Positions 7,950-63,439 are shown, counted from the first letter of the whole stretch. The stretch is DNA of 63,439 bases, filler included, from Globobulimina sp. (GCA_003354225.1; 56 parts of 56 records of this genome joined end to end with filler, not necessarily neighbours in it); one strand, 5' to 3'. Numbers and translations: made by a program. Notes: generated from the letters alone by a model not told the origin.

Positions 7950-8729
7950 CACATGATTATGTAAATCTTGCTGCCAGTCTGAATATGCTGCGTCAATCAC
8001 TTCGCTTTCACTCTCGGTGCGGCCCCACAACGCACGATCTTCGCTGCGTTGTTCTTCCTTTTTGTGTCGGATTACGACAAATATAATCAACGATATTAAG
8101 TACAAAATGCCAATGCAGGCCACTACGAAGGAGCCGCTGTTGTTTTCGTCGATGTTTAGGAATTTCCAGTCTGCAGAACCGCCGCCGACAACGGTGCCGA
8201 TTAGAGGCCCTATGATGGTGCCCACGGCGATCACGAAGCGGAAGTACAAAATACGCGATTCGCGCGAGGCTAATTTGCTGTATCTGGTGACGTGCGCGTA
8301 GCCAATGACTAATATACACGAACCTATTCCGCAGATGGCACGGCCGATCAACATGGTCAGACCGCGCTTGTTATGGACACCAAATGTGTACAGAATGTTG
8401 CCCAAAATGATAGATAAATTGAGGAAGGCCAAGATTTCAATGATTGGGCGACGGTCCAACCAGGCTCCGATGATTAGTGTGGATATGAACTGCAACGCGA
8501 CATAGACCATCAATATATAGACATAATAATAAGAATTGGCGCCGGCCGCTTCGTTGCAGGCGCTGTACAAAGTGGGGATATTCACCATCATGTCGATGGA
8601 GGCAATGAAGGCGAAAATGTAAGTGAACAATAAGAGGGGCGGTTTGTTTTGGAAATCGAACAGCGACGACGCGTCGGGATAGGCCCGATCTGCCAACACG
8701 GATATTTCTGTTTTGTTTCTGTGTTGCAT
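7950..8729 (-). CDS. MFS transporter (MFSD8-like), N-terminal half
   Basis: About six TM helices; GAWLDRRP motif A-like, GRAICGIGS, GTIIGPLIG. Confidence 0.8.
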
Positions 8730-9084
8730 TTGTTTTTTGGAGTGCTAGGATATGAAAAATGTATTATGTACGGTACCTGGTTCTGTTTTTTCTGCCCTTT
8801 TCCTGATCGGCTAACTGTGTATAATCGAGAGAGTGCAATCCGTCGTCGGCAATGTCGATGGTTGTGGGTTGGCGCTTTTTTTTCTTCTTTTTGCGCCTCG
8901 ATTTTCGTCGTTTCTGTGCATTGGTTTCAAACTGAAAAATTATCACATGACACATTTTCAGGTTCAAACTGGTGTAGAAATTGCNNNNNNNNNNNNNNNN
9001 NNNNNNNNNNNNNNNNNNNNNNNNNNNNTTAATTAATTAANNNNNNNNNNNNNNNNNNNNNNNNNNNNNNNNNNNNNNNNNNNN

Positions 9085-19015: not shown

Positions 19016-19402
19016 GAGGTGAAATATTAATTAAGCGATTCAGTCAAGATATTAACAACAACTGAATATTAACAATTTATTTACTACTTCCAGTTACTGG
19101 CTAAGACTGGCTTCACTTTGACAATGTTGCTTCCATCATCCCACATCACCATCATCATCAACTTATTAATCCCATCCATGTGTTTAACTGCAACCACCAN
19201 NNNNNNNNNNNNNNNNNNNNNNNNNNNNNNNNNNNNNNNNNNNTTAATTAATTAANNNNNNNNNNNNNNNNNNNNNNNNNNNNNNNNNNNNNNNNNNNNA
19301 TATTGTGTGTTTTTTTAAAAGTGCAAATTACAATATCGCCAACAGTATAAAAGAACCAAGTAACATTAAAATTCTTTTATTGACAGTTTGTTTTTTGAAA
19401 AT

Positions 19403-20334
19403 ATGCTATCCACCGAAATAAAAAAATTGTTGGAAAAATTATATTACGACAAACAATTCGGGTTTACTACAGCTCCAAAACTATGGAGTCGAGCTAAGAA
19501 AATAAAATCAGGAATTACTTTGGGAGATGTCAAGAAATTTTTGTCTACAATTCCAGCTTCGGCTAGACACAAACCAACACCAAAACCAAAACGAAACATA
19601 TGGAACAGATTCATTAAGGTTTCTTATCCAGGAGAATTGGTCGCTGTAGACACATGGTATCTCGGAAGCGGAACTCGATCACAATTTCCGTACGCTGCAG
19701 TAGCTGTAGATGCGTTGAGCAAGTATGCTTCCGTGGCTCCACTCCGCAGACTTACGGGAGATAATATGGTCAAAGCTATGGCTAAAATTATAGAAAATTT
19801 TAAATTTCCGATCAACTCATTATATTCTGATAGAGGGATCGAGTTCGTAGCTAGTCAATTTCGCCGATTTCTACAAGAGAGAGATATAAAAATAATCTAT
19901 ACCCAACCAAGTAACCCCTCAAAAACAGGACTAGCAGAATCTCTTATACGAACACTTAGAATAATATTGGGGAGAATAAATACAGGAGGAAACACCAAAA
20001 CAGGATGGGAAGCTGTGAAACAGGCTGTCGCAATATACAACAACTCACCTCACAGATCCATTGGCAATCGTTCACCCAACGAAGTCACAGAGAAAAATGC
20101 GCCACTAGTTCTCAAAGATATTTTGCAAAACCGATATAATTTTGTCGAAAAACATGCAAAACAATTTTTGCGTCCACCCAAATTTGAAGTAGGCGATGCA
20201 GTAAGAACATTAGACATAAATCAAATGGGTCATTTTGACAAGATAAATTTACCAAAATGGTCCAAAACCGTCTACCGTATATATAAAGTCATTCCCGGAT
20301 CTCCATCAGCTAGTTACATCATTTCAGATCCAGT
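19403..20334 (+). mobile_element. Polinton/Maverick-type retroviral-like (rve) integrase, 3' truncated
   Basis: N-terminal LYYD...KL...VKKFL; DDE triad AVDTW / SDRGIEF / GLAESLIRT; VDALSKY, YNNSPHRSIG, KFEVGDAVR, PKWSKTVYRI. Confidence 0.9.
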
Positions 20335-62405: not shown

Positions 62406-63155
62406 AAACAGTATTGAGAATCCGTTCGGTCCAGATGGATTTTGATGGTAACATTCGGAAGCAGGAGTTTGCTGCAGTTGAAGAATCCATTCTGTAGATG
62501 ACCACATAGGGTGAGCACTTTGCTGCCAGCGATATATTTGTATCGCCACTCGGGAAACACCACTGCTGGTTTGCCATTGACAGTCATTTTCATTTCCTCA
62601 TCGTAACCTATAAGTTGGATTTTAATTCAGAGTTACTGGTATAATTTCTACTTACCGATTGTGCTTTTGAGTGCATCCTTGAAATCACTGCCATAGTTAA
62701 GCAGGTTTTGAAAATATGCGATTTGATGATGGTTTCCAACTTCAGGACCAATGGCTGTTTGATCCAAGGTCAATATAATCCTGGAGAACAATGCATCAAA
62801 AAGACCAGCGACTGGAACCACCTGAAAATCAACTTGTCATTAATATATTCATAAGCTTTCTGGTTACCTTTTCCTTGTCAAGAGTGGCCAATTTTGATCC
62901 ATTGGCTTTTGTGACTTTGACTTTTATCATGAGATAAGTATTGGCCAAATCAGTAAAATGGTCGCCATCTATGGCCGGGGTAAAATCAATGGGTCCAGTG
63001 TCGGTGATAACAAAGTCTGTGCCATATTCGTAATCCTTTGCAGACAGAATGACATCTTGTTCCAATGGGTTTGAGAATAGATCAAGTTCAGTCTTTTGGA
63101 TGGTTCTGACTGGTAGTTCAGCCTCAAGGGTAGGATTAGGTCTTGATCGCTTCAT
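62406..63155 (-). CDS. Polinton/Maverick (adintovirus-type) major capsid protein, N-terminal part, three exons
   Basis: KTELDLF, GPIDF, DLANTYL, V.PV..LF..LFS, AYFQNLLNYG, R....GSK.L.L.G.L...FF...KLL.PNV.I.I.L.R; introns 62822-62867 and 62608-62655. Confidence 0.85.
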
Positions 63156-63439
63156 TTAGAGGAAAAGTCTTGGTTGATATTTGCGTACAACCTTGGTCTT
63201 GACAGCTACACGGCGTTTCTTCTGGGACTTTTGCTTTCTTTGAACTGGTTTCTTCTTGCTCAGAGTTCGTTTCTTGTTGGCAGGTTTCTTTCTGATAACT
63301 TTCTTGGCCACAGACTTTTTAGTTTTCCTTGGTTTCTTGGATGATACAAGATTGGAAACAGTAGGATAATGTTCGGTCAATCTGGAGAGGACACCAACAA
63401 GTCCACTACCAGCAGAGCTCATTGAAGACACCACTGCTC
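63156..63439 (-). CDS. Lys/Arg-rich putative virion core protein, C-terminal part
   Basis: AGSG then a K/R-rich tail; stop abuts the capsid ATG (TAAATG). Confidence 0.6.
   Translation of the reverse strand, partial: AVVSSMSSAGSGLVGVLSRLTEHYPTVSNLVSSKKPRKTKKSVAKKVIRKKPANKKRTLSKKKPVQRKQKSQKKRRVAVKTKVVRKYQPRLFL

Follow-up and report, generated by a model that had tools for sequence, protein, structure and literature searches.

A probable Maverick/Polinton-type capsid gene interrupted by two predicted small spliceosomal introns, with predicted interruptions in related sequences

The DNA considered here, hereafter the window, is a stretch of 63,439 nucleotides composed of 56 unrelated contigs of 1034-1036 nt each, which are joined by N spacers around a fixed 12-base word; genes facing each other across these spacers are therefore unlinked. 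The last of the 56 contigs (62406-63439, 1034 nt) contains, on the minus strand, the 3' part of a small basic ORF followed by the 5' half of a gene for a putative viral capsid protein. The upstream ORF (63159..63437, minus strand) comprises 93 codons and is open at the contig end; it is very rich in lysine and arginine, with 30 K+R and a single D+E in 93 residues, and its TAA stop codon (63158-63156) directly abuts the ATG of the capsid gene at 63155.

The capsid gene is found in three pieces, all on the minus strand. Exon 1 (62868..63155) extends from the ATG to the first interruption and includes 96 codons (P0001); exon 2 (62656..62821) contains 55 codons and one further base, which opens a Gly codon (P0002); exon 3 (62406..62607) provides the two bases completing this Gly and 66 further codons (P0004), up to the edge of the contig near residue 212 of approximately 440, so that only the 5' half of the gene is present on this contig. 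The pieces are separated by two GT...AG segments on the same strand: intron 1 (62822..62867), 46 nt long, GTAACC...TTTTCAG, in phase 0, and intron 2 (62608..62655), 48 nt long, GTAAGT...TTATAG, in phase 1. Their GC content is 0.283 and 0.271, versus 0.417, 0.416 and 0.446 for exons 1, 2 and 3. A preliminary description of this DNA had already proposed the three pieces and the two segments between them, and all of its coordinates and sequence features were reproduced.

If exon 1 is read without splicing, its frame reaches a stop at 62829, 12 codons into intron 1. Retention of intron 2 generates the series GGT AAG TAG, that is, an immediate stop at the in-frame TAG that the preliminary description had pointed out, with a TAA and a TGA further on in the same frame. 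Conversely, excision of both segments yields one clean frame, again as had been proposed, which is collinear with intronless relatives of 440-442 aa, with zero residues lost or added. The 656 coding bases contain no further stop or frameshift, and the 93 codons of the upstream ORF are likewise clean. Programmed frameshifting and an alternative genetic code were also considered and rejected, since they would add residues that have no counterpart in the relatives, and the second segment holds TAG, TAA and TGA in frame.

All GT-AG pairs able to join the open frames without a stop were enumerated at each junction, the frame-compatible pairs numbering 9 for the first junction and 17 for the second. 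At each junction the proposed pair is the shortest from the last donor that precedes the stop of the frame; one 22-nt GT-AG pair at junction 1 is shorter than the proposed 46-nt pair. The tblastn matches of the relatives extend right up to the proposed pairs. The donor of intron 1, GTAACC, is without the usual G at position 5.

The exon 1 product was compared with 1.84 billion representative proteins and retrieved 88 of them at E <= 1e-3, four of which at E <= 1e-10, with a best value of 4.4e-23. Full-length relatives are P0011, P0012 and P0016, whose 440-442 residues are encoded by intronless ORFs and whose first three residues are the same as those of the capsid gene. P0011 aligns collinearly with exons 1, 2 and 3, with about 38%, 45% and 49% identity (alignment A1). 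In tblastn, residues 3-95 of this protein fall on 63143..62865 (frame -3) and residues 95-212 on 62821..62414 (frame -1), with a joint E of 6.5e-42, indicating that the frame changes between consecutive residues. Other relatives were also placed on the exons: on exon 1, tblastn matches begin at residue 1 of the relatives and stop no more than two codons short of 62868; residue 1 of P0095 corresponds to 62821, the start of exon 2; exon 2 itself (P0002) matches residues 95-136 of P0005 by BLASTP (E 2e-7); and residues 22-68 of P0096 are found on exon 3 with 51% identity (tblastn, E 2.6e-16).

Comparison with curated families was unproductive. No Pfam family was obtained for P0001, P0002 and P0004 at E <= 10, nor for P0005 and P0006 at E <= 1, and P0011, P0012, P0016, P0042 and P0076 gave only stray weak matches at E <= 10; more generally, Pfam and PHROG scans of the exons, of the upstream ORF, of the relatives and of the largest exon of the ATPase-like gene on the related metagenome contig L001, described below, returned no meaningful family. 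Sequence searches of the PDB with P0001, P0005 and the profile A2 found nothing relevant, IMG/VR scans with P0001, P0011, A4 and P0005 no relatives, and a scan of prokaryote genome contigs with A3 none either. ORFs of the size of exon 2, sought among proteins of 30-97 aa, gave no candidate.

Because neither a curated family nor a solved structure was reached by sequence, the full-length relative P0011 was modelled with AlphaFold (AF2) on a 12-row alignment; the fold is thus read from a relative and not from the partial protein of the contig itself. The model has a mean pLDDT of 80.0 and a pTM of 0.78, and Foldseek aligned it with viral capsids in BFVD and PDB with E values from 1e-26 to 1e-13 and TM scores of 0.54-0.64. 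In BFVD, 140 of the best 500 matches are at E <= 1e-3. The strongest of them, with E 1.1e-26 and 19% identity, is to an uncharacterized protein of Cotesia sesamiae Mombasa bracovirus; adomavirus LO7, the capsid homologue of abalone asfa-like virus, an adintovirus protein and a MELD-virus protein come next, along with capsids from virophages and, in large number, from giant viruses. In the PDB, 276 of the best 500 matches reach the same threshold and include the capsids of grouper iridovirus (3e-17), Sputnik (4.5e-16) and mavirus (2e-14), together with PBCV-1 Vp54. These matches to viral double jelly-roll capsids assign the family to the double jelly-roll major capsid proteins. The identity proposed in the preliminary description has thus held up, and the model, together with the collinearity of the spliced frame with its full-length relatives, supports the prediction that the product of the gene is a double jelly-roll major capsid protein of the PRD1-adenovirus lineage.

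As for the bracovirus match, Dupuy, in 2011, is said to have described a chromosomal Maverick transferred into the bracovirus of a parasitoid wasp; we infer that the Cotesia protein is the capsid of that transferred Maverick. In the ESM Atlas, P0011 adjoins eukaryotic clusters, whose few labelled members belong to Nematoda, Echinodermata and Arthropoda. In one of these clusters 30% of the proteins are annotated with PF21738, the DJR-like domain, and this is the only sign of PF21738 that was encountered.

The preliminary description had also proposed a comparison of the intron positions with those of other elements. Here the sites of the relatives were read from predicted protein ORFs and by degenerate back-translation. 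The four best exon 1 matches, P0007-P0010, are 45-54% identical to the capsid gene product, and each is a short ORF (102-128 aa); in three of them the similarity is lost exactly at the end of exon 1, and the residue that follows is Val (GTN). The site is probably interrupted in P0007 as well, judging from its protein. A clearer case is P0101, which belongs to the same 90% cluster as P0010 and contains a 20-residue in-frame insert exactly at the intron 1 site. The first residue of this insert, Val (GTN), and its last, Gln (possibly CAG), fit a GT...CAG segment of 60 nt, and the exon 2 motif resumes immediately after it. P0010 and P0101 differ from each other inside the insert, as non-coding sequence would. 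In P0008, the tail was back-translated in the +2 frame: 12 of 14 positions can be matched to the exon 2 start of P0095, a value reached by 1 of 2000 shuffles, and 11 of 14 to exon 2 of the contig itself, as in 6 of 2000 shuffles. This match corresponds to an interruption of 53 nt, whose last two bases lie inside an Arg codon that can be AGG, so that a terminal AG is possible. Finally, P0095 (347 aa) begins exactly at the first codon of exon 2; since this codon is GTG in the contig, gene prediction would give the same start to the exon 2 found there.

Not all the relatives have the interruption at this point. P0009 reads eight homologous residues past the intron 1 site before diverging, and P0009, P0099 and P0100, members of one 90% cluster, have different ends after the same residue, a pattern that fits one-base changes in an A-run after a GTAAAA-like donor; this suggests that the cluster may have an intron at a neighbouring site, eight codons downstream. 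Intron 2 is absent from P0011, P0012, P0016 and P0095, all of which read through the site. P0096 and P0104 begin six codons before the exon 3 boundary, and these starts would be compatible with an interruption near the intron 2 site, short of proof. At the protein level there are thus signs of an interruption of the intron 1 site in P0101/P0010, P0008, P0007 and P0095, and intron 2 is variable.

A tree built from 21 rows and 95 columns of the exon 1 region resolves two starred capsid groups. One of them is a clade of 12 rows, within which the gene of the contig joins P0007, P0008, P0009 and P0101 (support 87/85). The carriers of the interrupted site form one weakly supported group; this label needs two changes on the tree, and 57 of 500 shuffles do as well, so that a single gain of intron 1 is possible only. 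Neither intron has a word of at least 14 nt in common with the rest of the window, and thus the sample, small as it is, gives no indication of an introner family. Taken together, the GT-AG ends, the exact restoration of the frame, the AT-richness and the apparent same-site interruption in divergent relatives support the reading of both segments as small U2-type (GT-AG) spliceosomal introns, here predicted from sequence, which would be removed by splicing.

A second locus with a similar arrangement is found on L001, a metagenome contig of 2372 nt, where an ATPase-like gene (1-771) is followed by a basic ORF of 90 aa (829-1101) and then by an intronless capsid gene nearly identical to P0012. The succession of basic ORF and capsid gene is common to L001 and to the contig at 62406-63439, and the two basic ORFs are similar in size, place and charge (30 K+R in 93 residues versus 25 in 90 in L001); a BLASTP comparison between them was not significant (E 2.7). 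Their product could be a DNA-condensing core protein. The ATPase-like gene of L001 is itself interrupted twice by GT-AG segments: the first (bases 85-133) is 49 nt long, GTATGC...ATTTAG, with a GC content of 0.245, and the second (bases 219-265) is 47 nt long, GTAAGT...TTACAG, in phase 1, with a GC content of 0.213. Removal of the first segment restores a G-x4-G-K-T Walker A pattern across the junction, and the gene also has a hydrophobic-DD motif resembling Walker B; the putative ATPase identity is read from these motifs and from gene position only.

The contig differs in composition from most of the window. Its GC content of 0.412 ranks second among the 56 contigs, most of which are between 0.28 and 0.39, in agreement with the higher GC noted in the preliminary description. 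The only contig above it (7950-8984, 0.461) contains an open frame of 280 codons with many hydrophobic stretches. The two introns were also said to be shorter than others in the window, and their 46 and 48 nt are indeed less than the 53-79 nt of the handful of candidates detected on the other contigs by a rough heuristic scan, which are too few for a real comparison of lengths. Elsewhere in the window eukaryotic features are evident, such as long standard-code ORFs, C2H2 zinc-finger arrays and a calreticulin fragment, for which an Atlas query returned no useful taxon; a full-length gene for the U6 spliceosomal snRNA is located at 56315-56417 on the minus strand (92.4 bits, E 1.8e-22), indicating that the main organism is a splicing eukaryote. 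Another contig has, at 19370-20332 on the plus strand, a stand-alone ORF that matches the rve integrase core (PF00665) with E 2.4e-13; it starts about 70 nt into the contig, with no reverse transcriptase upstream in its frame, and it could be part of a Maverick- or Ginger-type element or of a retroelement, unlinked to the capsid contig.

The sequence studied is contained in one sequencing run, which has 0.69 of the words sampled; no run recorded as RNA was listed for it, and two further runs, X2 and X3, gave nothing that matched. A separate assembly of that run produced a 679-nt contig that is identical across both introns; since the run is possibly the source of the window, this support is non-independent. 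In the same run, a separate contig of 192 nt has 7 differences over 125 nt (63307-63431) of the upstream basic ORF, being about 94% identical, and could derive from a second copy or an allele of this region.

The explanation that best accounts for these observations, and which we consider probable, is that the contig carries the 5' half of the capsid gene of a Maverick/Polinton-type element, with two small spliceosomal introns. More broadly, the data are read here as pointing to a lineage of Maverick/Polinton-like elements that would have such introns in their core genes; in this reading we infer both the splicing and the identity of the whole element. A polymerase, an integrase, an FtsK/HerA-type packaging ATPase, a protease, a penton gene and terminal repeats are absent from the 1034-nt contig, beyond whose ends they would lie. 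The capsid gene is part of a compact, virus-style array, directly behind the small basic ORF, and would be transcribed in the host nucleus, as implied by splicing through the host machinery; the host spliceosome would have to remove both introns before any capsid protein could be made. Translation of unspliced RNA would stop after 108 codons, or else at the TAG close to the start of intron 2. The element would be copied as DNA, and introns, once gained, would pass to its descendants. Such a mode of copying would explain why the intron 1 site is common to relatives with about 50% identity, while others are without it or have it displaced. It may be speculated that the introns boost expression, or avert host silencing of intronless foreign genes. 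The capsid copy on this contig could nevertheless be inactive.

The preliminary description had left two alternatives, an intron-bearing element relying on the host spliceosome or a domesticated capsid gene, and of these the former fits better, because of the TAA-ATG abutment and of the order found on L001, and the latter less well. In the case of domestication, a co-opted Maverick capsid would have become a host gene with host-like introns and vertical inheritance, and the relatives sharing intron 1 would be its orthologues. A position of interruption common to proteins only 45-54% identical is indeed what orthologous host genes display, the frame stays open throughout the three exons, and a precedent is available in the Ginger1 transposase genes and their domesticated Gin descendants, for which the relevant passages report conserved intron positions (PMC2836005). 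However, host genes are not packed so that the ATG of one abuts the stop of another, as is the case for the capsid gene and the basic ORF, with the same order repeated in L001 and an ATPase-like gene upstream; close relatives vary in the introns they carry; and the same run contains the second contig, about 94% identical over the 125 nt of the upstream ORF, even though this may be an allele. A domesticated gene is thus regarded as quite unlikely. Much less credit still is given to a dead, decaying endogenous copy, in which both segments would be chance insertions and no protein would be produced. Precedents for decay exist, since 96% of vertebrate Maverick loci are degraded according to the part of PMC8097293 that deals with them, where insertions are taken as 'introns' by Genewise. 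Chance insertions would not be expected, however, to give two GT-AG segments that restore the frame exactly, with no residue lost or added, and that are both much more AT-rich than the exons; moreover, 656 coding bases and 93 upstream codons are without other stops or frameshifts, and in divergent relatives the first site appears interrupted too, with segments that measure 53 and 60 nt instead of 46. A decaying copy therefore appears very improbable.

A third scenario has the same gene anatomy and differs in lifestyle and host: the contig could come from a free adintovirus-like virus that would use host splicing for its late genes, in a small co-sampled animal of the sort for which the preliminary description gave a nematode as example. 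The high GC rank of the contig (0.412, second of 56) can be seen in this light, as can the length of the introns, which at 46 and 48 nt are below the few candidates of 53-79 nt obtained elsewhere by the rough heuristic, with the TTTTCAG acceptor as a hint. The presence of adintovirus and MELD-virus proteins among the fold matches is in the same direction, and so, weakly, is the nearest Atlas cluster, which is eukaryotic and has one member labelled Nematoda. On the other hand, element DNA often departs from the GC content of its host, and 1 kb of sequence gives nothing to tell free from integrated DNA. A term search of the adintovirus paper gave no 'splice', and 'intron' only in an unrelated context (PMC8502044). 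Furthermore, the rve ORF shows that the assembly does include integrating elements, although this ORF is not linked to the capsid contig. A free virus is thus judged unlikely, and a capsid gene belonging to a Maverick/Polinton-type element remains the preferred interpretation.

An intron-split capsid gene would contradict a working assumption of the field and expose a blind spot of virus mining. In the part of a large protist survey that describes its methods, prokaryote-style gene calling is justified by the statement that endogenous viruses 'do not contain introns' (PMC10120064); surveys of endogenous Polinton-like viruses, in which gene finders of this type are common, would count too few members of a lineage that has mini-introns in its capsid and ATPase genes, or would take them for degraded copies. 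If the reading is correct, these elements would depend on nuclear transcription and on the host spliceosome, and the intron positions that they have in common would be new characters for tracing element descent and host range. It is conceivable, although we would not yet favour it, that an entire clade of small-invertebrate viruses of the Maverick/Polinton type possesses host-like split genes, with mini-introns of 46-60 nt in the capsid and packaging genes; these would be gained and lost between lineages, kept through DNA replication and needed for expression, perhaps evading a surveillance directed at intronless foreign genes, and the clade would be fragmented or missed by ORF-based mining.

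Comparison with known systems places the gene close to the animal Mavericks/Polintons, with which it shares a double jelly-roll capsid protein of about 440 aa, the compact virus-like packing of the genes, a top fold match carried by a bracovirus, and the nearest Atlas clusters, from Nematoda, Echinodermata and Arthropoda. Differently from the animal Mavericks as described, two introns are found here in the capsid gene, and two in the ATPase-like gene of the relative L001. The preliminary description had remarked that the capsid ORF of animal-type Mavericks is usually given as intronless, and the sources, in the sections concerned, bear this out: intact vertebrate Mavericks are described as having 'intronless ORFs' (PMC8097293), and the core genes of nematode Mavericks, capsid included, as 'intronless genes', with introns confined to the cargo (bioRxiv 10.1101/2022.07.12.499685). 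These descriptions lower the prior for an intron-bearing capsid gene. Term searches of the papers on capsid discovery (PMC4028283), adintoviruses (PMC8502044) and nematode Polintons (PMC10748475) retrieved, in the text covered, no spliceosomal introns in core genes. A full-text search of the literature gave no positionally conserved mini-introns in the capsid gene of animal-type Mavericks; the founding Polinton papers are outside its scope, and an earlier mention is possible.

Adintoviruses and MELD viruses have the same class of capsid gene, and their proteins are matched by fold with E values of 1.6e-16 (adintovirus) and 4.9e-16 (MELD-virus); sequence identity is however only 13-14%, and capsid splicing is unmentioned for adintoviruses in the text reached by a term search (PMC8502044). 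The nearest precedent is provided by the eupolintoviral proviruses of dinoflagellates, for which the pertinent passages report introners in capsid-encoding Maverick-Polinton-like elements (Gozashti and Corbett-Detig 2025, PMC12166617), that is, spliceosomal-type introns inside elements of this kind. According to the same passages, dinoflagellate introners are copies of mobile families in protist hosts, with only about 25% of them in coding regions (PMC12166617). Conversely, both introns of the capsid gene described here are 46-48 nt long, have no word of at least 14 nt elsewhere in the stretch, and one of them occupies a site apparently common to divergent relatives. Outside the capsid-encoding elements, a further term of comparison is given by the Ginger1 DNA transposons, whose genes, in the portion of the report that covers them, have 1-4 canonical GT-AG introns at conserved positions (Bao, Kapitonov, Jurka 2010, PMC2836005). 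Ginger1 belongs to an unrelated class, which has only an integrase-like transposase and no capsid; nevertheless, it offers a precedent for introns in the genes of elements that are copied as DNA.
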